In this document: positions 41,774-63,928 of the stretch, piece after piece
How positions within the stretch are numbered: position 1 is the stretch's first letter
How the letters are laid out: each line of letters begins with the position of its first letter
DNA from: Candidatus Woesearchaeota archaeon
GTDB taxonomy: Archaea; Nanobdellota; Nanobdellia; Woesearchaeales; JAGLXL01
Direction of reading: 5' to 3'
DNA: 64,000 bases
Assembly (NCBI GenBank): GCA_030640025.1
Contig: DAOWKC010000002.1
Location: 4,029 to 68,028, forward strand
Notes under the pieces: model-generated
The model's database searches: none
What the model was told of the DNA's origin: nothing
Seen by the model: only the letters and a program-made list of their open reading frames with translations
Translations under genes and position numbers: made by a program

Positions 41774-44395
41774 TTATTCTTTTTTGAACCTTGATTTAAT
41801 CAAAGCAAAATTAACCGGGTTCTTAATCTTCTTGCATAAAGGTTCAGGATGGCAGACATTGAAGGATTTGTAGTAGTCTGGGTGGCTGCAGTTTGGCGGG
41901 AGGATGGGTTTTTTGTTTTTGGCGCTGTTAAGCTGGCCAAGGAGAATATTTTCTCTGAGAGATTCAGGTTGATTTCTTTTGTTCCAGTCCAAGAGAAATG
42001 ATTTGATTTCTTCATGACCCCAACCGCATTTTTTTAAGAAATTAATGAGGATGAAAGTGGAACGTTTTTTGCCGTCTTCGAGTCCTTTGAGGATTCGATG
42101 AATGCAAGGAGGAAAGCAATTTTCTGGAATGGCATTTTCTGGTAAAGGCATTTCTCGTCTTTGGATTTGTATTTCTTCTTCTGGCATTTTGAAATCAAAG
42201 GCTTGAACTAGCAAGGATTTGGCTTCATTAGGTTGGGCTTTTTTGTCAAGGAAAACAAACTCTGAAACTGGGCAGCCTGGTTTGGCCTGGTTTTTGGTGA
42301 ATTCTAATATTTTTTTGGGGTTGATGGGTATGGAGACAAGACCTGATTTTTCATGTAAAGAATAAGGAGCACGGTAAAGGTGTCTCGATGAAATTAATAA
42401 GGTGTCGATTTCTAAAAAAGGTTCAACATCTAAAGCAGGGATTTGTTCACCAAATTCATTTCTTTGGTAGCGGATAATATTTTTGGTTTCCAGGCCGGTT
42501 TTTTCCTTGATTTTGTTGAAATCACTATTTTCTAATTTGAGGATTTGCCGGCTGAGCGGGTTTTTGATTTTTTCAGTAATGTAGAAAGCGATCCTTCGGG
42601 GTGCTTCGGGAAAAAGGTCTTTTATTTCTTGGTTATTGATTTTTTCTGGAAAGGCTTCAAAAGGAACAGCAATATGGAAGCCTTTGTTGCCAGAATTGTG
42701 CAGTAAAACAGGATAAACGCCACCAAAAAAAGCCTCAGTGTCTGATACTGAAACATCATAAACATTTTCTTTTTTACTTTTTACCATTTTTTTAATTTTA
42801 ACAGTAGCGATGTCATTATTGAACAATTTTTTGTAGTTTGAAATGATTTTCTTTGATTGATAATCATAATCAATAGATTTAGTTTTATCAAACCAGTCTA
42901 AGATTTTTTTTATTCTCTTTAGATTAGCTGATTTTTTCTTGAGACTCATCTGTTCTGTCCTGTGGTGGTTGAATTTTTTTGGTTTGATCTGATGATAGAC
43001 CTGCCTCAAGCCATCGACAGGGAAAACTTTGTCATGAGGATGTGGAGAAAATTTATTTCTTTCCCTGAAAAACTCATTTGAATTTAGTTCTGATTTAGGG
43101 ATATTCATAGTATAAACATGACTGCCTTTGAAGATGTTTCCTTGAGGTAATTCATGCTCCCTGCAAAATTCTTGATTGACAGAACACGAAATTCCATTCA
43201 ATTTAGATAGCCATACCAATTGAGTGATCAATTGATGAGAAACAGATTTTATTGTAATTGAATATTGGCCACGTTTATAACCATCTCCTCTGATGTAACT
43301 TTTTAACATCTCTTCGAAATACTCCTTAGGCAACTCCCAAGAAAACTCAGGAACATGCTTATTTTTTGCTCCCTTACCACAGCTTTTTTCAAAAAAATGA
43401 TACCATTCTTTTGAATGAATTAAGATTTGTGTCGTTTTGGGATTTGGATGTCTGATTGAAATAAATCTTTTGGTAAATCTTTTCAATAAATTAACACAAT
43501 CAGAAATATAATCTTTTTCGTCGATGTGAAAAGAAAAACCTATTTGATATATTGTTTTAGTGATATGGCCTTCAGCCAGATAGTAGCCCAATAATCTCAT
43601 TAAATCCCTGTTTATTTTAATTTCCCTTTTAGTTGGCTTTTTATTATAATCAAATTCCCAACTAAAATATTCTGGTTCTTTTGTTAGATTATTTGAACTA
43701 TTAAAAGTAATCAATTCATCAGAATCTTTTAATTCATTTACTTTTTTTTGGATAATAAAACCCCTGTTCCAGACAAAAACTGAATGGTGTTTGGTGGCTT
43801 TGATAGGTATTGTGCTATGGGCATGGTGGATTTCATAAATTTTCTCTTTATGGGTCAAATAGTCGTATACTTTAGAAAAACAAACTTTTCTTCTTTTATT
43901 TAAAGATAAAACTTGGATTTTTTTACCCGATTTATGGAGTTCGATTACTTTGGCAATCGGAACAAGACTAATAGTTTTATCTGTTTTTATTAGTAAGGGT
44001 GTGTCTCCAGTAACACTAAATTTGATAGAATAAGATTTGATTTTGTTGTAGTCAAGGAATTTGATGATTAAGTGAGCAGCTATTTTGGAATATTCAATGA
44101 ATTTACAGTCAATATCAAGGACAAGGTCCCAGCCAATTCTTAAGTTGTCGAGTTCTCTTTTTTTGAGGTCGGGGTTGAGTTGGAGGGGATTAAGCCAGCG
44201 TTCTTCTGAAGTATGAAAAGAAGTAGCGCCTTTTTTAGCTAATTCAAGAATATCATTAGGGTATTGTAAGATGTCAGGGCGTTTGCCGAATTTGTCTTCG
44301 TATCGAACGGTTGTTTCCCTACTTTCGACATGTTCAATCATGGCTTTTTGAATATCTTTTCTCTTGTAATGCTTGAGAAGGGTTGAGATATGCAT
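41774..44395 (-). CDS. priSL: fused archaeo-eukaryotic primase PriS-PriL (small catalytic subunit plus large-subunit Fe-S C-terminal domain), interrupted by an intein
   Basis: N-extein carries AEP motif I LVLDIDC. The C-extein starts with motif II SGNKGFHIAVP and ends with a PriL-CTD-like region CFPPCIHRILKGL...CGW...C...C (compare FPPCM of eukaryotic PriL). Extein total 432 aa. Confidence 0.8.
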   Translation of the reverse strand: MHISTLLKHYKRKDIQKAMIEHVESRETTVRYEDKFGKRPDILQYPNDILELAKKGATSFHTSEERWLNPLQLNPDLKKRELDNLRIGWDLVLDIDCKFIEYSKIAAHLIIKFLDYNKIKSYSIKFSVTGDTPLLIKTDKTISLVPIAKVIELHKSGKKIQVLSLNKRRKVCFSKVYDYLTHKEKIYEIHHAHSTIPIKATKHHSVFVWNRGFIIQKKVNELKDSDELITFNSSNNLTKEPEYFSWEFDYNKKPTKREIKINRDLMRLLGYYLAEGHITKTIYQIGFSFHIDEKDYISDCVNLLKRFTKRFISIRHPNPKTTQILIHSKEWYHFFEKSCGKGAKNKHVPEFSWELPKEYFEEMLKSYIRGDGYKRGQYSITIKSVSHQLITQLVWLSKLNGISCSVNQEFCREHELPQGNIFKGSHVYTMNIPKSELNSNEFFRERNKFSPHPHDKVFPVDGLRQVYHQIKPKKFNHHRTEQMSLKKKSANLKRIKKILDWFDKTKSIDYDYQSKKIISNYKKLFNNDIATVKIKKMVKSKKENVYDVSVSDTEAFFGGVYPVLLHNSGNKGFHIAVPFEAFPEKINNQEIKDLFPEAPRRIAFYITEKIKNPLSRQILKLENSDFNKIKEKTGLETKNIIRYQRNEFGEQIPALDVEPFLEIDTLLISSRHLYRAPYSLHEKSGLVSIPINPKKILEFTKNQAKPGCPVSEFVFLDKKAQPNEAKSLLVQAFDFKMPEEEIQIQRREMPLPENAIPENCFPPCIHRILKGLEDGKKRSTFILINFLKKCGWGHEEIKSFLLDWNKRNQPESLRENILLGQLNSAKNKKPILPPNCSHPDYYKSFNVCHPEPLCKKIKNPVNFALIKSRFKKE
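42695..44017 (-). mobile_element. 441-aa intein with LAGLIDADG homing endonuclease domain, inserted between F126 and S of the primase SGxxGxH motif
   Basis: Block A SVTGDTPLL (Ser1), block G VYDVSVSDTEAFFGGVYPVLLHN followed by +1 Ser, and LAGLIDADG motifs LLGYYLAEGHI and YIRGDGYKRG inside. Confidence 0.8.
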
Positions 44396-55297: not shown

Positions 55298-55345
55298 GAA
55301 TTTTAGAAGTTTTTTAGAATATAAAAATGTTTGGAATTGAGATTA

Positions 55346-55723
55346 TTAATACCAATCATGACCTTTTATTCCAAGAAGGATATTCAATGCACTACCTCTT
55401 ACCCGTGCTTCTGCACTTTCTCTTTCATGCCCTCTTCTTATCATTGATTCTGGTTTCCAGTAATTTTCCTTTGCTTTTTCATAAGCCTCGTTAGAATCGT
55501 AATGTTCGCGACGAGGAGGGTCAAATCCAAATATTTCAGCAACCCGGGACATTCCTGCCTTATGAGCAGCCACTGCCTTTGGATTCGAACTAATTAAAAG
55601 AAGAAAATCAAGATCATGAAGTTTATTAAAACTTTTCTTTCTTTCTTCTAGATCGACTGCTTTAGCTAGTCTATCATCAAGGATTCCGAGGATTGGATTG
55701 TTTATTCTAGTCATTTTAATCAT
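55346..55723 (-). CDS. hypothetical protein (125 aa), co-operonic with the Nudix hydrolase
   Basis: Intact ORF with an 8-nt overlap with the upstream Nudix gene. Confidence 0.35.
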   Translation of the reverse strand: MIKMTRINNPILGILDDRLAKAVDLEERKKSFNKLHDLDFLLLISSNPKAVAAHKAGMSRVAEIFGFDPPRREHYDSNEAYEKAKENYWKPESMIRRGHERESAEARVRGSALNILLGIKGHDWY

Positions 55724-56384
55724 TCAAAACATGGACTCTTTTATCTGGGGCTGGTTTGAAAAGATGTTGGAATTTTTTAACAATATACCTAACGTCGTTA
55801 GTGAAATCCTGGGGATTCTTTTTAATTTGTTTTTCAAGATCTTTTAATTCAAAAACCTGAATACCACAAGCTTCATCATCTCTGAATTTAATTGAGCCGT
55901 CATAATAGCCAATGTAAAACTGAGTCATGCTTGGTTCAACCCATTCTTTGCCTGAGCTTTCTTTTCTGGTTGATTGATAGTTATCTAAATGGATGATGGG
56001 AGTGAGGATGCCTAAAACATGGAGGTCGGCAACAGAAACACTATGTTTAAACTCGGTTGGATTGACGATAGTAGCTGGAATACCTAATTCTTCAGCGCAT
56101 TCTTTAAGTAAGGTTAAATCATAGGAATCTTTAGTGGAAACGTGACCGCCAATGGTTTTATCCCACATGTTGGAATTATCGCCTTTCCATTTTGATCTTT
56201 TTTGTAAAATAATCCTGCCGTTTGAAGTCATTAAAATAAGCCTGACGTGTTTGTGTCGGACAGAAACTTTGCCTCGCTTAGAAAATTCATGGCGCATCTT
56301 TTCATGGAGCTTCTTTTTTTCCATACTGCCGAGTAATTCGCCTTCGTAAGAATAGTAATCAATCATTTCCCGGTTAAATTTCAT
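55716..56384 (-). CDS. Nudix hydrolase
   Basis: Nudix box GGHVSTKDSYDLTLLKECAEELGI (Gx5Ex7[R/K]ExxEExGU, with Lys in place of Arg). Confidence 0.6.
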   Translation of the reverse strand: MKFNREMIDYYSYEGELLGSMEKKKLHEKMRHEFSKRGKVSVRHKHVRLILMTSNGRIILQKRSKWKGDNSNMWDKTIGGHVSTKDSYDLTLLKECAEELGIPATIVNPTEFKHSVSVADLHVLGILTPIIHLDNYQSTRKESSGKEWVEPSMTQFYIGYYDGSIKFRDDEACGIQVFELKDLEKQIKKNPQDFTNDVRYIVKKFQHLFKPAPDKRVHVLND

Positions 56385-56603
56385 TTTGATTTTCCTCTAT
56401 TTTTGATAAAATTTAAAGCAGCTAATTCAAAAAAATGAGATTTATTTCTGTAAGTTTTTGACTTCATTTCATCACGGACTTTAGTTAGAGTATCTTCGCC
56501 TACAGTTATGCTTATTTTTTGTCTCATATCATAGTATTTTATACTACTAGTATATAAATGTTTCTATTTTTAACTACTTTTGAGTGGTAAATTAAAAGAA
56601 TAA

Positions 56604-58277
56604 TCACTTAAGAAGTTCTCTTGACCTTTTGTTCAAATCAGCAAAATAACCACGGATTAACTGAGTCATCTGATGAAAATAATTGAGGGCGGTGAGGGTT
56701 TCGTCTTGTTGTTGATAAGATAAATTAATAACTTTTTTGAAGAATTCTTGAGGTTCGCCTTCGGCTAATATCCCTGGGTCGCTTTGAAACCATTTGTATT
56801 TGACAACATCTTTTTCTCCGATTTCTTTCATAGTTGTTCTGACTGAATTACCAAGAGGGATTCCTAAAATAACATTTTTACCAAATAATTTTCTGGGGGA
56901 TTTATGATGTTGGATGTCATATTCTGGTTCTTTGGTAAAGGAAAATTGGAGCTCATAGTCTGTACTACCATACGTAAACCGATGCAATTTAATTTGAAAA
57001 TATTTGTTCTCGGCTTGAAGTATAAGGGTGGCCCAACACTCATTACCTTTTCGACTTTTGAGAGAAAAATCATAAGGGGGCTTGGAATTATCTGGACGGT
57101 AAACTTTAAATTCTCTTTTCAAAATGGCGAGTTGCGATAATTCACTGTGCAAAGTTAAAAATATTTCGTGGAGACCTTTTTCACCTAAACAACGTTCCTG
57201 CAGGGCTTGATAAGTCCCTTCATTTAAGATGGTAAGTGAGGATTGGTCACGGCCGAGATTAGGTAAATCGTTTCTAATTCTGATTAATTCCTTGTATAAT
57301 TGCTCTGTGTTTTGAAGTTGTTCTGATTCTTTTTGGGAAATACATTTTCTAAAAACTTGGTTGATTTCTTCAGGGATTTTGGAGTTGATATCTGAAGGGT
57401 CGTCTTTGAAGAGACTTTCCATTGGTAATTGATTAGTAAACATTTTATAAAGAAGTGTACCAAAAGCAAAAAGGTCGTCTTGAGAAACAGGTTTGCCACC
57501 TTTTCTTTGATTAGGTGACATATATTCAAAAGTTCCGACAGCTTCTGGATTGGTTTGGGAAAGAGAAGCAACAAGGGTATGAGTTAAACTAGATGATTTA
57601 ACTGTACTCAAACCAAAATCTGTAATTTTAACTTGATCGCCAGGAGTGATGAGAACATTGCCTGGTTTTAAATCCCGGTGAATAATTGTATGGTCATGAC
57701 AGTATTTCAAAGCATCGGCAATTTGGATAAGAATATCAAGACCGTAGGCAGTTGAAATAAATTCGCCGGCCTGAGATTTTTCTTCTAAGAGGCTGTCTAA
57801 ATCTTGGCCGTCAATATATTCCCTGACAAGCCAAGGTTTTTTTTCGTGGATACCGGCATCCAGAACTTGGACAAGATGTGGGTGTTGGAATTCTTGCTTT
57901 GATCCAAGAAGAATAGCAACCTCTCTTTGAAATTGACCAACATTATTATCGATTGTATCGTTTGAAATCTTAAAGGCAAAAGTTTCTCCTGGTTTGGTTG
58001 TATCGCTGGCTTTGTAAACAGCGCCAACAGCTCCTTCGCCAATTTTTTTACCGAGAACATATTTATCAATAGTGATTAGAGTTGGTTCTTCTTGAGGGGT
58101 TTCTACTGTTGGTGGTGATTCTTCAGAAGGTTCTCCTTCTGGAAGAGGTTGGTCTTCTTCAGTTGGAGCTGGGTCTTGAGATTCTTCTGGAGAGCTTTCT
58201 TCTTCTGGAGCTTCTCCTGCCGGTGTTTCTCTTTCAGGTTCTCCTTCTCTGGGAAGCAATGTTTCTCCTTCTGGCAT
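56604..58277 (-). CDS. Hanks-type (eukaryotic-like) Ser/Thr protein kinase with an acidic Pro/Glu-rich N-terminal region
   Basis: GEGAVGAVYKA glycine loop, catalytic HRDLKPGNVLI, DFG (ITDFGLS) and APE-like motif, plus about 230 aa of C-terminal non-kinase domain. Confidence 0.8.
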   Translation of the reverse strand: MPEGETLLPREGEPERETPAGEAPEEESSPEESQDPAPTEEDQPLPEGEPSEESPPTVETPQEEPTLITIDKYVLGKKIGEGAVGAVYKASDTTKPGETFAFKISNDTIDNNVGQFQREVAILLGSKQEFQHPHLVQVLDAGIHEKKPWLVREYIDGQDLDSLLEEKSQAGEFISTAYGLDILIQIADALKYCHDHTIIHRDLKPGNVLITPGDQVKITDFGLSTVKSSSLTHTLVASLSQTNPEAVGTFEYMSPNQRKGGKPVSQDDLFAFGTLLYKMFTNQLPMESLFKDDPSDINSKIPEEINQVFRKCISQKESEQLQNTEQLYKELIRIRNDLPNLGRDQSSLTILNEGTYQALQERCLGEKGLHEIFLTLHSELSQLAILKREFKVYRPDNSKPPYDFSLKSRKGNECWATLILQAENKYFQIKLHRFTYGSTDYELQFSFTKEPEYDIQHHKSPRKLFGKNVILGIPLGNSVRTTMKEIGEKDVVKYKWFQSDPGILAEGEPQEFFKKVINLSYQQQDETLTALNYFHQMTQLIRGYFADLNKRSRELLK

Positions 58278-58352
58278 TTTTCAATTATGTTTAGAACACG
58301 CTCCGATTATGAGGTTGGCGAAGATTTAACTTATAAATCTTTCGTAATATTA

Positions 58353-58375
58353 AATGCGGGCGGCAGGGTTCCCAC
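58353..58375 (-). repeat. duplicated fragment of the 3' end of the adjacent class II tRNA (AACCCTGCCGCCCGCATTTAA)
   Basis: A 22-nt exact direct repeat of 58424..58445, placed about 50 nt beyond the tRNA 3' end. Confidence 0.6.
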
Positions 58376-58426
58376 GTCAGAACCCTTGGTTCCGACACCT
58401 CCCCTCGCTCCGCTCGGAAATTTAAA

Positions 58427-58595
58427 TGCGGGCGGCAGGGTTCGAACCTGCGTAGGCACTAAGCCAACAGATGACTTACGAATGGTTCTTCATCGCACTG
58501 CGATTGCAGCACTCTGCACTCAAATGCCTTGAGTTAAGACGACACACAGTTCAACTGTGAGTTACTGTCCCGTTTGGCCACTCCGGCACGCCCGC
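58427..58595 (-). tRNA. class II tRNA (Leu-like D- and variable arms) carrying about 84 nt of intervening sequence; anticodon unresolved
   Basis: The reverse complement has a perfect acceptor GCGGGCG/CGCCCGC, a D-arm identical to tRNA-Leu(GAG) (UGCCGGAGUGGCCAAACGGG), variable arm UGGCUUAGUGCCUAC and T-arm GCAGGUUCGAACCCUGC. An insert begins right after GACAG, at the same place as the intron in the tRNA-Arg at 17877. Confidence 0.55.
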
Positions 58596-58704
58596 ATGAA
58601 CGTAGTGAATGTGGGCACCAGGAAATCTCTGATTTCCGCTGCGCCCGCAGATAGAGTTTGAAAATTAGAAGTGGTATTTAAATTTAATTATAAAAAAAAG
58701 AAAT

Positions 58705-59220
58705 TTATTCAAGTCTGCCGAGTTTGTTTTCGATGTCAGCTAATTCTGATTCGAGTTTTTCAATGTCAGTCATGGGTTTTGGTTTTTCCATGACTGGCGG
58801 CGCTAACTTGGCTTGAGTTTCTTTAGCCACTGGTTTTTTAGCTGCTTTTTTGATGACTTTTACTTTCTTTTTCTTACTGTGTAATTTGTGGTGTTTAGTC
58901 AAGCTTTGCCTTGATTTGAATTCTTTGTCGCAGCGATCGCATTTGAAGATTTTGTGCTCTTGGTGCAGATGAATCCTTAATTTGGTTTTAGGCAAAGCTT
59001 TGCGTAATTTATTGATATAAAGTTTGAGCTGGCGAACATCTTCTCTCAAACGCTTAATGGCTTCTTGTTTTTCATTGCGAAGGGTTTTAAGTTTTTCATG
59101 CTGCTGCAAGAACTGAACCATTTCCTTTGAAGTTTCTAAAATATTTCTTCTAACTTCAAGAGGATCCTGGACACCAACGAAAAAGACTTCTTCTTTTTCC
59201 TGAGTTTTTTTCTTAGCCAT
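58705..59220 (-). CDS. coiled-coil protein with a C-terminal C2H2-like zinc finger
   Basis: FKCDRCDKEFKSRQSLTKHHKLH (C-x2-C-x12-H-x3-H). The N-terminal VFFVGVQDPLEVRRNILETSKEMVQFL domain is shared with the two upstream genes. Confidence 0.55.
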   Translation of the reverse strand: MAKKKTQEKEEVFFVGVQDPLEVRRNILETSKEMVQFLQQHEKLKTLRNEKQEAIKRLREDVRQLKLYINKLRKALPKTKLRIHLHQEHKIFKCDRCDKEFKSRQSLTKHHKLHSKKKKVKVIKKAAKKPVAKETQAKLAPPVMEKPKPMTDIEKLESELADIENKLGRLE

Positions 59221-59221
59221 T

Positions 59222-59497
59222 TTACAAAGTTTCTGGTTCAAATAAGGTCTTATCAATAAAATCAACTTTTCTGTCCATTTCTTCTAGGGTATTGCTCCAA
59301 ACTTCTAATTCAGCATCTTCATCATTTTTAAGTTGATTAATTTTTTCCAATGTTTTTCTAGCATCAACAATTTTGTTTTTGATGACATTAACAACATCGA
59401 GAACGTCCTTATAATCTTCAATTTTAACAAAAACAGGCATTTCTGGCATTTTTTCACCTCTTAAATAAGACTTCATCAACATAGATGAGTTTTCCAT
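59222..59497 (-). CDS. small coiled-coil protein, paralog of 59454..59888
   Basis: PVFVKIEDYKDVLDVVNVIKNKIVDARKTLEK...VDFIDKTLF is collinear with the downstream-encoded PIFIHAPTYKALIDEVSQMKAQLVEADDIVETLE...LIYVDEVLF. Confidence 0.5.
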   Translation of the reverse strand: MENSSMLMKSYLRGEKMPEMPVFVKIEDYKDVLDVVNVIKNKIVDARKTLEKINQLKNDEDAELEVWSNTLEEMDRKVDFIDKTLFEPETL

Positions 59498-59888
59498 GAA
59501 TATCTTTTATATTTGACTGCCAACTTCGATAGGCTTTATCCTGATCTTCTTTGAAATTTTCCAAGGTTTCGACAATGTCATCAGCTTCGACAAGCTGAGC
59601 TTTCATTTGGCTAACCTCATCGATAAGTGCTTTGTAAGTTGGAGCATGAATAAAAATTGGTTTGACAACATGATGTTCCCGAATTTCAGAAAGTCCTAAT
59701 TTTTCTTTTTCAATAACCCTCTGCTTTTGTTTTTGTAAAGGTGTTTGAGCTTGAGATCCAACAGCTTCTTGGATTTCTGCTTCAGATGGTTTTTCTAAAT
59801 CCTTTGGAGAAGGAAAACTGGGAAGATTTGTATCTGAAGGAGGAGTCGGGATTTTAAGCTCTTTCTTTTTCTTTAAAAAATTAAACAT
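59454..59888 (-). CDS. coiled-coil protein with a Pro-rich N-terminus, paralog of 59222..59497
   Basis: 144 aa. The start/stop overlap with neighbours implies translational coupling. Confidence 0.5.
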   Translation of the reverse strand: MFNFLKKKKELKIPTPPSDTNLPSFPSPKDLEKPSEAEIQEAVGSQAQTPLQKQKQRVIEKEKLGLSEIREHHVVKPIFIHAPTYKALIDEVSQMKAQLVEADDIVETLENFKEDQDKAYRSWQSNIKDIHGKLIYVDEVLFKR

Positions 59889-60002
59889 TCTACCACCTCC
59901 AGCCTTTTTAAATTGACTTGGTTATTAAAAGTTTTGTGAGCATTTTATAAGAGTTATTTGGTGTTATTGTTTTTGAGTAGTCAAAATATTTTAGTTTAAA
60001 TT

Positions 60003-60037
60003 TTACTTACAGTGTAAGTATTACTTACAATGTAAGT
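60003..60037. promoter_or_regulatory. tandem palindromic sites TACTTACAGTGTAAGTA and TACTTACAATGTAAGTA upstream of the LTD protein gene
   Basis: Two adjacent 17-bp perfect palindromes. The same site recurs at 63771..63787 (and degenerate at 63828..63844). Confidence 0.55.
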
Positions 60038-60084
60038 ATTTATTTTAGGGAAAAAATAAATAGGTTTAGGACATTACTAAGGAA

Positions 60085-62235
60085 ATGAAAAAATTGGTGT
60101 GGTTACTGGTCTTAGTTGTTTTCTCTCAGCTAGTTTTAGCTGAAGTAAGAATTAATGAGGTGATGTATGCTCCGACTAGTGATTGGGGCGGACAATATAA
60201 TGAATGGATTGAGTTATATAGTGAAAATGAAATTAATTTAAGTAATTGGAAAATTGATGGAAATGATTTTGATGATATTATAATTGGCAGTGGTGGTTAT
60301 GTAGTAATAGCTAGGAATGCAGTTGCTTTTCAAAATACTTATGGTTTTCAAGTAGCTGATGGTAATTTTGTTTTAAGTAATGATGGTGATGTGATTGAGC
60401 TGTCTAATGGAACTAAAAGTTGGTTGTTCCCTTATGACAATAATAAAGCAAATAATAATGGAAAAACTTTGGAGTGTGCTGGTGGTGAGTGTACTGGCGG
60501 TAATTGGGAAGATAGTTTAGTTTTAGGCGGAACTCCTTGTGAGATCAACAGCAAAGCTGGATTTATCCAAGATTATAGCCAGGTAAAAATAAATGAATTT
60601 TTGCCTGATCCAATTGGAAATGATGATGCAGATAAACCATTGGGTGAATGGGTGGAACTATATAATACAGGCAAGGCGCCAATTGATCTGCGAGGATTAG
60701 TTCTTTATGATAAAGATGATAGTCATGAGTTGTATATTAGTGATGTAACTACTACTGCTGGAACAGTAATTCCAGCTGGGAGTTATCTAGTTGTTTATCG
60801 AAACGGAGATACTGATTTTGCTTTGAATAATGATGGTTTTGAAGAAGTTCGTTTTTATGATGGTTATCCAGTAAATAACAGTAATTTGATTGATTCAATG
60901 AGTTACAGTGGAGGTGTGGAGGGGATGAGCTGGAGCAAAGTTAAGGAAGGATGGTATAAATCAACGGCAACTCTTGGAGGGGAGAATGTGAGGGTTGATG
61001 GTTGTGATTGGAGCGTTAAGGTTTTGCCTCGGAATTCAATTTTTAATTCTGGCCAAGGTTTGGTTTGGGATGTGGTTGTTGAGAGGAATTATGGTGAAAC
61101 AGGAAATTTGACAGTTGAGGGTCGAGTAGAAGATGTTTTTGGGAAAGTGGTGAAAACTTACAAGCCGTGGACAGATAAGGTGATTACAACAACTCGGACA
61201 AAAACTTATACTCCAAATTTACCCGAAGATATTTACAAAATATTTTTTGAAATTAAGGAAATTGACTGTCAGGACAATGACTTGAGTAATAATGTGGATT
61301 TTGATTTGGTGGTGATTAATCCTCAGTACAAGGTTTTTGATTCTAATTTAGAAATTGAGGAGATTTATCTAGGCAATGATGACGAAGCTGAATGGGGAGA
61401 TAGAGTAAGGGTGAAGGTTCATATTTACAAAGGTGATGAAACCAAATATAATGTTGAACTGTACGCTGAAAAAGATGGTCGAATTGTGAGTAAACGGACT
61501 AAGACGAGTGTTTTTGACAAGTTTAAGGATTATACTTTGACTTTACCAGTACAGTTAGAACCTAATTGCAACCAATATTATTTAGATGGTGATTATGAAA
61601 TGGTTTTGAAAGGTTTGGAAAAAGAAGTGAGAGAGGGTTTTAGGATTAAGGGGATTGACAAAGAATTATGTCAAGAAGTTAGTGGAAGTGTTTCTGGTTC
61701 TAGTCAAAAGTTTGGTTATAAATTAGTAGAAAGCCCAGATGAAGTTCAAGCAGGGGGAGATTTTGATGTCAAAGTTGAATTAACAGGTGATGATGAGGAG
61801 CATGATATTAAAGTCAAGAGTTATATTTATCGAGGTCCAAAACATTACAGTGAAGAGGTGATTGAAGAACTTAAATTAGAGGTGAACGAGATCAGGGTTA
61901 TTGATTTGAATTTAGAGGTTGATGAAGATGTTAAAGAAGGTGAATATAAGTTGAAGATTAAAATAAATAAAGATAATCAAAAAACTGATAAGGAAATAAC
62001 TGAGGAGATTAAAGTTCGAGAGACAGATGAAGATGAGGAATGCATGGTAGTGGGTGAGGAGTTGTCTGTTAGGAATATTAGTATAAATGAAAAATTAAGT
62101 TTGTTAAGGAGATTAAATGAAGACGGGAAGATTGTTTATCTTTCTAAATCAAAACAAAGTTTTGAATGGGTGCCGATGATGATTATTGGAGTTTTGGTTT
62201 TGCTTTTGGTGATACTTATCTGTAAAAAACTGTAA
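60085..62235 (+). CDS. cell-surface protein with two lamin-tail domains (LTD), signal peptide and C-terminal TM anchor
   Basis: Signal peptide MKKLVWLLVLVVFSQLVLA. LTD signatures INEVMYAPTSDWGGQYNEWIELYSEN and KINEFLPDPIGNDDADKPLGEWVELYNTG. C-terminal VPMMIIGVLVLLLVILICKKL. Confidence 0.75.
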   Translation: MKKLVWLLVLVVFSQLVLAEVRINEVMYAPTSDWGGQYNEWIELYSENEINLSNWKIDGNDFDDIIIGSGGYVVIARNAVAFQNTYGFQVADGNFVLSNDGDVIELSNGTKSWLFPYDNNKANNNGKTLECAGGECTGGNWEDSLVLGGTPCEINSKAGFIQDYSQVKINEFLPDPIGNDDADKPLGEWVELYNTGKAPIDLRGLVLYDKDDSHELYISDVTTTAGTVIPAGSYLVVYRNGDTDFALNNDGFEEVRFYDGYPVNNSNLIDSMSYSGGVEGMSWSKVKEGWYKSTATLGGENVRVDGCDWSVKVLPRNSIFNSGQGLVWDVVVERNYGETGNLTVEGRVEDVFGKVVKTYKPWTDKVITTTRTKTYTPNLPEDIYKIFFEIKEIDCQDNDLSNNVDFDLVVINPQYKVFDSNLEIEEIYLGNDDEAEWGDRVRVKVHIYKGDETKYNVELYAEKDGRIVSKRTKTSVFDKFKDYTLTLPVQLEPNCNQYYLDGDYEMVLKGLEKEVREGFRIKGIDKELCQEVSGSVSGSSQKFGYKLVESPDEVQAGGDFDVKVELTGDDEEHDIKVKSYIYRGPKHYSEEVIEELKLEVNEIRVIDLNLEVDEDVKEGEYKLKIKINKDNQKTDKEITEEIKVRETDEDEECMVVGEELSVRNISINEKLSLLRRLNEDGKIVYLSKSKQSFEWVPMMIIGVLVLLLVILICKKL

Positions 62236-62359: not shown

Positions 62360-63001
62360 TTGGATATGACAAGTGTTAAGCAAAGATTGGAAGAAGGGTG
62401 GATTCAAGCAAGAATTGTTCTAGAGATAATTGGAAAACCAAAAGGGCATGTTGAAAAGACAATGCAAGATTATGTTGAGAAGATAAAAAAAGAGAAGGAT
62501 TTGGAAGTTCTGCATGTGGATATCAATGAAGTCCAGAAACAAGAGACCGGGGCTAAAGATGAGAAAATGGTCAAAGAGATGTGGGCAACTTTTGCTGAGC
62601 TGGAAATTTTGTTTAAGAATTTACCTCGAGTGACTTATTTTTGTTTTGAGTATATGCCTTCGTCAATTGAAATTATTGAACCGCAAAATTTGCAGGTAAA
62701 TGGAAATGATTTAACTAGTTTTTTTACTGATTTACAGATGAGGCTGCATGAAATTGATATGATTGCCAAACAACAAAAAAGCCAGACCATGTTCTGGGAA
62801 AGCCAAATCAAAGGATTGTTGAGGAATTTTGTAATGGTGGCTTTATCGAGCAGAGAACTGACAGCTGATGAGTTGTCAAAAATTACTGGTGTTCAAAAAA
62901 ATACTCTGGAAGATTTTTTAGATGAATTAGTTGATAAAAATGAAGTGAAAATGGTGGGTGAAAAATACCGGAAGGTGTTAGATGGAAAGAAACAAAGTTG
63001 A
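62360..63001 (+). CDS. hypothetical protein, possible ScpA-like kleisin (C-terminal winged helix)
   Basis: Immediately upstream of and overlapping scpB, the usual scpA-scpB arrangement. C-terminal wHTH-like ELTADELSKITGVQKNTLEDFLDELVDKNEV. No strong ScpA motif recognised. Confidence 0.35.
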   Translation: MDMTSVKQRLEEGWIQARIVLEIIGKPKGHVEKTMQDYVEKIKKEKDLEVLHVDINEVQKQETGAKDEKMVKEMWATFAELEILFKNLPRVTYFCFEYMPSSIEIIEPQNLQVNGNDLTSFFTDLQMRLHEIDMIAKQQKSQTMFWESQIKGLLRNFVMVALSSRELTADELSKITGVQKNTLEDFLDELVDKNEVKMVGEKYRKVLDGKKQS

Positions 63002-63770: not shown

Positions 63771-63787
63771 TACTTACAATGTAAGTA
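63771..63787. promoter_or_regulatory. third copy of the palindromic site TACTTACAATGTAAGTA (a degenerate fourth copy lies at 63828..63844)
   Basis: Identical to the site at 60021..60037. It lies between scpB and the next + strand ORF, which starts at about 63929. Confidence 0.5.
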
Positions 63788-63928
63788 CTTTAGTTTTTAA
63801 AAAGTAATAAAAATTATAACAATATAATACTTACATTGTGGGTAGAATAAACGGGGATTTGTTGTAAGTTCTCGACGATAAATCGACCAAAACATTAATA
63901 AACATAGCCAAATTCTGGTTTTATAGAC

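Follow-up and report, generated by a model that had tools for sequence, protein, structure and literature searches.

Three small genes lie together on the minus strand, within positions 58705-59888, of a 64,000-nucleotide (nt) stretch of a Candidatus Woesearchaeota archaeon contig (DAOWKC010000002.1, positions 4,029 to 68,028), which is referred to below as the window. These co-oriented genes, which we name A, B and C, and the site that precedes the first of them are the following:

59454..59888, minus strand: gene A, 144 residues, consisting of a putative membrane peptide, a linker and a coiled-coil domain; an open reading frame (ORF) with 12 close homologs.
59222..59449, minus strand: gene B, 75 residues, the bare domain that it has in common with A; 112 homologs at 52-95% identity.
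58705..59220, minus strand: gene C, 171 residues, consisting of a basic core, a linker with a zinc finger and an acidic C-terminal helix; 30 homologs.
59893..59900, minus strand: Shine-Dalgarno-like site GGAGGTGG, 4 nt before the ATG of A, as read from the sequence.

Homology searches recovered conserved homologs of each of the three proteins. The start of B is the ATG at 59449 (MPEMPVFVK...), which is preceded at 5-11 nt by a GAGGTG Shine-Dalgarno motif and has an equivalent in most of the aligned homologs, which are 75-84 residues long. The ORF at 59222-59497, which an earlier note on this DNA had taken as B, is the longest ORF opened by an ATG, and the supported gene is shorter. Because the start of B is placed at 59449, the three genes do not overlap; 4 nt separate the TGA of A from B and a single nucleotide separates B from the ATG of C. 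Thus, the description of three coupled small genes in that note holds for their common orientation and tight packing but not for the overlap of start and stop codons that it had reported. The packing is retained in related loci (n = 74), in which the median spacers are 6 nt between A and B and 5 nt between B and C, and a spacer of 20 nt or less is found in 63/74 and 69/74 loci, respectively. Such short spacers across 74 loci indicate that A-B-C is a tightly coupled operon, composed of real genes.

The arrangement of the genes is conserved too. Surveying related genomes for the same three-gene cassette, a step proposed in the earlier note, we compared 81 loci from different GTDB species, out of about 220 species with a confirmed B relative, and the order A-B-C on one strand is kept in 79 of them, the two exceptions being contig ends. 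Six loci retain the trio amid entirely different neighbors, which makes the trio itself the unit of conservation. The homologs all come from Woesearchaeota/Nanoarchaeota (Nanobdellota) metagenome bins and are all annotated as hypothetical; the "Methanosarcinales" titles attached to some matches look like placeholder labels from third-party assemblies. An exhaustive HMMER search with a combined A and B profile returned 3,249 representatives of 50%-identity clusters at E ≤ 1e-3, and 1,063 at E ≤ 1e-10, in only two domain architectures: the bare domain (72-84 residues), or the domain at the C terminus of a 100- to 340-residue protein. Indeed, the domain lies at the extreme C terminus in every long member. 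Elsewhere the window has the character of core chromosome, with genes for ribosomal proteins, RNA polymerase subunits, topoisomerase VI and primase, and no relative of the trio family was found in IMG/VR, GenBank phages or plasmids. The best reading of these data is that A-B-C is a housekeeping core operon of Woesearchaeota/Nanoarchaeota and not a mobile element. One locus in the sample carries a bacterial label: L080 (NVSR01000018.1, SAR324 cluster bacterium) has a B-type gene with 62% identity at a contig end, and it is probably a mis-binned archaeal contig.

Protein A is built from the following three parts, with a linker of very variable length before the last:

59859..59888, minus strand: A residues 1-10, MFNFLKKKKE, in which a polybasic run comes after a hydrophobic cluster.
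59835..59858, minus strand: A residues 11-18, LKIPTPPS, a conserved Pro motif, L-[DE]-[IV]-P-x-x-P-P.
59457..59663, minus strand: A residues 76-144, the A/B-type domain, with the strand PIFIH, a long helix and the end LIYVDEVLFKR.

The N-terminal peptide has the family logo M-G-[FWL]-L-x-[FL]-x-K-K-K, which is matched in 72/79 members by regular expression and in about 77/79 by eye when GTG and TTG starts are allowed. We call this peptide hydrophobic-plus-polybasic, not an amphipathic helix, because its helical hydrophobic moment equals that of shuffled sequences. In the Pro motif, P14 and P16 are near-invariant in a 48-sequence alignment, and the strict expression for the whole motif matches 47/79 members. 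A Pro-rich, acidic linker follows, and the domain at the C terminus closes, in the A family, with LI(Y/F)xDKTLFK. Protein B is this domain alone, with an acidic composition and a polar pair, K41/E44, at heptad positions a and d; the AlphaFold2 (AF2) model of the B monomer is one helix of about 61 residues (residues 10-70), with a mean predicted local distance difference test score (pLDDT) of 87.4.

The C-terminal domain of A and protein B are true paralogs, as judged from their sequences. BLASTP aligned the last ~70 residues of A with B over 66 ungapped residues at 27% identity (E = 2e-11), and comparison of the two families with hhalign gave a probability of 96.9% and an E value of 1.7e-10 over 70 columns, so that the two paralogous coiled-coil proteins that the earlier note described are borne out in alignment. 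That note had also put one module at the N terminus of all three proteins. The module is indeed common to A and B, but in A it is found at the C terminus, and C is not demonstrably homologous to either. Protein C was tried as a third member of the A/B coiled-coil domain family and rejected, at hhalign probabilities of 0.5-15%. The one piece of C to align with the other two families is its C-terminal helix, which recurs as a weak hhalign match to the second half of the B domain (E = 0.002-0.004).

Protein C contains a core and a C-terminal helix of nearly constant length, with variable segments before and between them:

58975..59187, minus strand: C residues 12-82, the core, with the strand VFFVGV, a helix over residues 20-75 and the motif LPKTKLR; R48 and K51 are at heptad positions a/d.
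58879..58947, minus strand: C residues 92-114, a C2H2 finger, FKCDRCDKEFKSRQSLTKHHKLH, in the variable linker, recognized by spacing, AF2 model and Foldseek.
58771..58872, minus strand: C residues 117-150, a Lys-rich disordered linker, with pLDDT < 50 over residues 121-133.
58711..58767, minus strand: C residues 152-170, an acidic heptad helix at the very C terminus, a helix in the AF2 model with pLDDT of about 85.

The core is fixed at 71-72 residues across the family, and in the AF2 monomer its helix reaches pLDDT values of 88-98 over residues 21-70. The N-terminal tail (3-40 residues) and the linker (18-68 residues) are both disordered and variable. Their combined net charge is at least +5 in 43/68 members, and the charge of one segment tends to fall as that of the other rises (r = -0.49), as though C needed a polybasic arm but not at a set place, a pattern read from sequence composition. 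The C-terminal helix, which is 20-21 residues long in most members (maximum 25) and carries a mean net charge of about -3, follows the logo E-[LI]-x-x-L-E-x-x-L-x-x-I-E-x-[KRQ]-L-x-x-L, in which L156, E157, L160, I163, E164 and L167 are each invariant or shared by 90% or more of 68 sequences.

The C2H2-type finger that the earlier note saw in C is genuine by several measures. FKCDRCDKEFKSRQSLTKHHKLH meets the classical spacing (F/Y)-x-C-x2-C-x3-F-x5-L-x2-H-x3-H exactly, the AF2 model shows a β-β-α arrangement (strands 92-93 and 100-101, helix 104-116), and Foldseek superimposes this model on human C2H2 fingers in the PDB with a root-mean-square deviation of 0.6-0.7 Å over 25 residues. The Pfam scores fall just short of their cut-offs (zf-C2H2_6, 21.5 bits against 25; zf-C2H2, 20.1 bits against 25.2), and the close C homologs P0014-17 and P0023 carry precomputed PF00096/PF13912 matches. 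The conserved LPKTKLR motif immediately precedes the finger, which lies in a variable linker (rich in Lys in this lineage) and is present in 11/30 close C homologs and in only 1/79 C proteins from representative genomes (L008). It is thus a late, lineage-specific insertion, accessory and not the point of the system.

The earlier note had suggested that the locus may be a DNA-binding or regulatory module or a mobile-element remnant, a reading that is taken here to include a zinc finger regulator and the remains of viruses, plasmids and tRNA-adjacent islands. The canonical finger in C and the tRNA gene(s) and kinase directly downstream of C would speak for it. With the finger in so few C proteins, the trio kept in a conserved core block in 79 species, no relatives found in IMG/VR, phages or plasmids and no PHROGs or PADLOC match, this explanation is barely credible, whether it is put as a regulatory unit or as a mobile remnant. 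The proposed link to the tRNA/kinase neighborhood also falls away. In loci L002 and L003 the block of tRNA, kinase and NUDIX genes is missing and RNase J comes directly after C, and hence the block is a local, lineage-specific insertion, not part of the system. More generally, the case shows how the disordered arm of a structural protein can take up a C2H2 finger, and a finger alone is poor ground for annotating transcription factors or viral remnants.

Although C is not demonstrably a homolog of A and B, it shares their build: a short β-strand of 5-6 residues (VFFVGV, compared with PVFVKI) followed by a long heptad helix of about 60 residues. Column statistics show a continuous a/d heptad seam in both B and C, the two seams being in phase when the numbering of C is shifted by a fixed +7 from that of B, and at this offset the β-strand, a central charged pair at a/d and the final Leu of the two proteins coincide, R48/K51 of C corresponding to K41/E44 of B. 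The pair in B is highly conserved (K41 in 95%, E44 in 100%; KE in 74/76 loci). In C, R48 and K51 are conserved in 76% and 95%, respectively, the pair being mostly RK and QK in 16/76 loci; in the window copy of A it is K113/Q116. The mean net charges of the three partners are -6.9 ± 1.8 for B, +6.0 ± 2.2 for the C core and -0.1 ± 3.4 for A. In a clade of 16 loci (L044, L055 and a subset of L059-L084) the A pair has become E/E (G/N in L070), R48 of C has become Q and the conserved Trp of A has become Leu; the same loci have a strongly basic C N-terminal tail and an acidic or neutral C linker.

No known family was recognized for the three proteins in the earlier note, and our searches agree. Pfam, NCBIfam, PHROGs and PADLOC gave nothing significant for A, B and C, only subthreshold C2H2 and generic coiled-coil matches. 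Pfam at relaxed E values, applied to 68 diverse C and 48 diverse A proteins, showed no consistent weak family (the best, DUF4200, in 10/68), and the only matches from PDB sequence-profile searches with four alignments were to designed or viral coiled coils, at E > 0.01. When the C model was compared with the PDB by Foldseek, the finger alone matched, and locally; for single-helix models a fold search is not meaningful. No long hydrophobic, transmembrane-like segment was found in A, B or C, either in the family alignments or in the AF2 models. None of the titles and abstracts returned by literature searches on Woesearchaeota with ESCRT, SepF, coiled-coil proteins or protein families describes the trio. 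By sequence and profile, then, A-B-C is an undescribed module for which no tie to a described family was found.

The same searches bear on two alternatives. A, B and C could be a soluble coiled-coil adaptor or chaperone, akin to prefoldin or small BLOC-1 subunits, with no membrane or DNA role and with incidental termini. That only generic coiled-coil matches (KxDL, BLOC1_2, Syntaxin N, prefoldin; E = 0.01-1) were obtained, and that the hydrophobic moment of the A N terminus is unremarkable, fits this explanation, but none of those matches is significant, the position-specific N-terminal logo of A is conserved despite highly divergent linkers, and compensating polybasic arms are maintained in C. 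We consider it quite unlikely. The second alternative, an ESCRT-III-like membrane-remodeling set, would make the A N terminus a CHMP insertion motif and the C tail a MIM1, the terminal helix (I-E-x-[KR]-L-x-x-L) recruiting an MIT-domain ATPase. The A logo resembles the N termini of CHMP3/CHMP6, and the C terminal helix MIM1; both likenesses serve as a lead, not a test. The basic core and acidic tail of C do match the charge polarity of ESCRT-III. Yet no Snf7 (PF03357) profile match was found in 119 proteins (those of the window at E ≤ 10, 68 C at E ≤ 1 and 48 A at E ≤ 10), nor any PspA match in the same set. AF2 gives single uninterrupted helices without an α1-α2 hairpin, though monomer models of coiled-coil subunits can mislead. 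The elements are divided among three genes, and no MIT/Vps4 gene was seen within the neighborhoods examined. An ESCRT-III-like role is, in our view, very unlikely. For SNAREs, only subthreshold matches to the Syntaxin N-terminal domain appeared, in 5-6/68 C proteins.

The reading that we prefer is a complex-plus-membrane-anchor model, to which we give a probability of roughly 0.45. A, B and C would be co-translated subunits of one housekeeping complex in Woesearchaeota-type DPANN archaea, each supplying a short β-strand and one heptad helix of about 60 residues. The three helices would pack parallel and in register to form a heteromeric coiled-coil rod about 8-9 nm long; the equal helix length and phase, the complementary charge, the polar layer and the matching strands all point to a stoichiometric, parallel, in-register hetero-oligomer. 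The core-genome setting, with gyrA, scpB, an scpA-like gene, PCNA and RNase J as neighbors, and the expression of FtsZ by Woesearchaeota (PMC11606122) also speak for the model. Complementary charges (about -7 in B, about +6 in the C core and about 0 in A) would hold the rod together, along with a mid-helix polar a/d layer formed by K41/E44 of B, R48/K51 of C and K113/Q116 of A. The N-terminal hydrophobic-polybasic peptide of A, on its flexible Pro/acidic linker, would attach the rod to the cytoplasmic membrane, and short terminal peptides are used for membrane tethering by SepF, ZipA and Noc. The disordered arms of C, polybasic in most members, would bind a polyanion, most plausibly DNA; the recruitment of a C2H2 finger into this arm in one clade favors nucleic acid, and in this lineage the inserted finger may reinforce the arms. 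The acidic C-terminal heptad helix of C, on a flexible leash, would dock a partner or link complexes together. This combination of putative rod, A anchor, C arms and C docking helix suggests a tether or scaffold that is fixed to the membrane and serves, most plausibly, the nucleoid or a division or segregation factor. We hold the specific cargo with lower confidence than the complex and its anchor.

Several points weigh against this model. The AF2 predictions are of monomers. The hhalign comparisons of C with A/B, using full and enlarged profiles, gave nonsignificant probabilities of 8.9%, 0.5% and 15%, and use of the C core alone gave a nonsignificant E value of 0.03 at a probability of 1-2%. 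The coordinated A/C switch, in which A EE accompanies C QK, is weak evidence for an A-C contact, since across the 76 loci the co-variation of the polar layer is confined to a single clade and counts as one event. Membrane binding by A is inferred from composition and by analogy because the hydrophobic moment of the peptide, 0.36, is no higher than that of shuffled sequences, 0.33. The net charge of the C N-terminal tail plus linker is below +3 in 15/68 members, and what the polybasic arms bind could be RNA or acidic lipids or proteins instead of DNA. Finally, the synteny of the operon with gyrA, scpAB and PCNA genes is a conserved gene order, compatible with the tether reading and not proof of it.

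The anchor layout of A, with an N-terminal membrane peptide, a flexible linker and a C-terminal interaction domain, would also suit a cell-division accessory, in which the trio tethers or bundles the FtsZ ring in the manner of SepF, ZipA or ZapA and the C-terminal helix of C or the β-strands bind FtsZ or SepF rather than the nucleoid. Woesearchaeota use FtsZ and express it (PMC11606122), and the distribution of the trio is that of a housekeeping system. Against this, no ftsZ or sepF gene occurs in any of 81 neighborhoods. Neither SepF (PF04472) nor ZapA gave a profile signal in the window, 68 C and 48 A proteins, and the PDB profile searches returned no SepF match. The polybasic arms and inserted finger of C, moreover, point to a polyanion. 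We regard an FtsZ-ring accessory as unlikely.

In its fullest form, the model of a complex with a membrane anchor would make the trio an undescribed, lineage-wide machine: a heterotrimeric in-register rod with a central ionic layer, anchored by A and reaching through C to the nucleoid or a partner. This extended version is doubtful. Were it true, the trio would be a novel part of the archaeal cytoskeleton, of chromosome tethering or of division, without a homolog in characterized organisms, and it could be an independently evolved analog of ESCRT-III or SNARE logic. The genomes of the uncultivated Woesearchaeota and related DPANN archaea are tiny, and genes that all of them keep are therefore likely essential, many being without an assigned function. 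Here, in 79 of the 81 species loci compared, the operon strictly keeps its order, its spacing and its motif architecture, among chromosome-maintenance genes. A tether from membrane to nucleoid, or from membrane to division apparatus, would be a new element of DPANN cell biology, which is poorly known, and the trio would then offer three defined proteins for structure prediction and heterologous expression.

The genes that most often accompany the trio in the 81 loci are these:

Lamin-tail-domain (LTD) surface protein: 63 loci.
RNase J: 48 loci.
PCNA: 44 loci.
MJ0538/ScpA-like protein: 44 loci.
ScpB: 41 loci.
GyrA: 26 loci.

The commonest order, which the window shares with the distant locus L002, is gyrA-scpB-scpA-like-LTD, divergent from A-B-C-RNase J-PCNA. 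The LTD protein (PF00932; window 60085-62235, plus strand), the most often conserved neighbor and usually divergently transcribed, is 600-720 residues long and carries a signal peptide and, at its C terminus, a transmembrane helix. The gene upstream of scpB (62360-63001, plus strand) matches a recent Pfam family, PF27325 (MJ0538), and sits where the kleisin ScpA is expected, beside ScpB in 44 loci.

A repeated palindrome marks the intergenic region between the divergent LTD and A genes:

60004..60038, no strand assigned: two tandem 17-bp palindromes, TACTTACANTGTAAGTA, identified as inverted repeats.

The tandem pair adjoins an AT-rich, TATA-like stretch before the LTD start. TACTTACANTGTAAGTA also occurs at 63771-63787 and 63828-63844, between scpB and gyrA and upstream of gyrA, which makes four sites in the window compared with 0.03 expected, and three exact copies lie upstream of A in the related genome L006 (5424-5473). 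From its sequence and placement, TACTTACANTGTAAGTA is a possible operator common to the LTD/A and gyrA promoters; its action on A-B-C is uncertain.

Downstream, the block at about 55300-58700 between C and RNase J holds the tRNA(s), the Ser/Thr kinase (56604-58277), a 48-residue ORF, a NUDIX gene (55716-56384) and a 125-residue ORF. With introns allowed, and only then, ARAGORN finds an intron-bearing, class-II-like tRNA at 58426-58596 on the minus strand, 84 nt in length, whose variable arm is long and whose 87-nt intron falls at position 33/34. The program calls it Asp(GTC), an identity that is doubtful. A second candidate, Ala(CGC), at 58278-58426 on the minus strand, appears with introns at a relaxed threshold; default ARAGORN and Rfam return nothing in this tRNA-like region downstream of C. 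Elsewhere in the window, an 873-residue ORF (41774-44395, minus strand) has an intein-splicing match and faint LAGLIDADG and DNA primase large-subunit matches in Pfam and may, from these, be a primase subunit that contains an intein; near it is a free-standing LAGLIDADG gene (L085, 21422-22159).

Comparison of the trio with known systems shows which parts of its proposed logic have precedents. Like the SepF and ZipA anchors, which are also small housekeeping proteins, A has a short N-terminal peptide of putative membrane-binding function, a flexible Pro/acidic linker and a small C-terminal domain. However, the interaction domain of A is a heptad helix of about 60 residues, whereas that of SepF is an α/β dimer, SepF gave no HMM or PDB sequence match, and A comes with two obligatory partner genes. 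Noc, of Bacillus nucleoid occlusion, and archaeal CdvA resemble the trio in the logic proposed here, a hydrophobic/basic membrane peptide combined with a DNA-contacting basic part, and CdvA also has a C-terminal partner-docking peptide on a linker. In contrast, the trio contains no ParB, PRC-barrel or other domain shared with them, its functions would be divided among three polypeptides that a coiled coil holds together, and its DNA binding is putative. ESCRT-III proteins (Snf7/CHMP) have the same basic-core/acidic-tail polarity, a similar N terminus (M-G-x-L-F-G-K-K-K) and a terminal helix with MIM1-like spacing; they differ in the Snf7 profile, unmatched among the 119 members, in the hairpin, not predicted here, in being encoded by one gene instead of three, and in a Vps4/MIT partner, not seen in the neighborhoods examined.

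The SNARE and BLOC-1/BORC bundles likewise consist of several heptad helices of about 60 residues from different small proteins, assembled in register, with a conserved mid-core polar layer, although in the trio the assembly itself is inferred. Unlike them, the trio lacks a SNARE HMM match and a C-terminal transmembrane anchor, has N-terminal β-strands, and is prokaryotic and operon-encoded. Residues 92-114 of C agree with classical C2H2 fingers (PF00096/PF13912) in exact spacing and predicted β-β-α fold, but here a single finger lies inside the disordered linker of a coiled-coil protein and is absent from most orthologs. The trio is thus closest in logic to SepF/ZipA, Noc/CdvA and SNARE/BLOC-1 while being a member of none of these, and it would represent a nonhomologous, three-gene version of a coiled-coil membrane tether.

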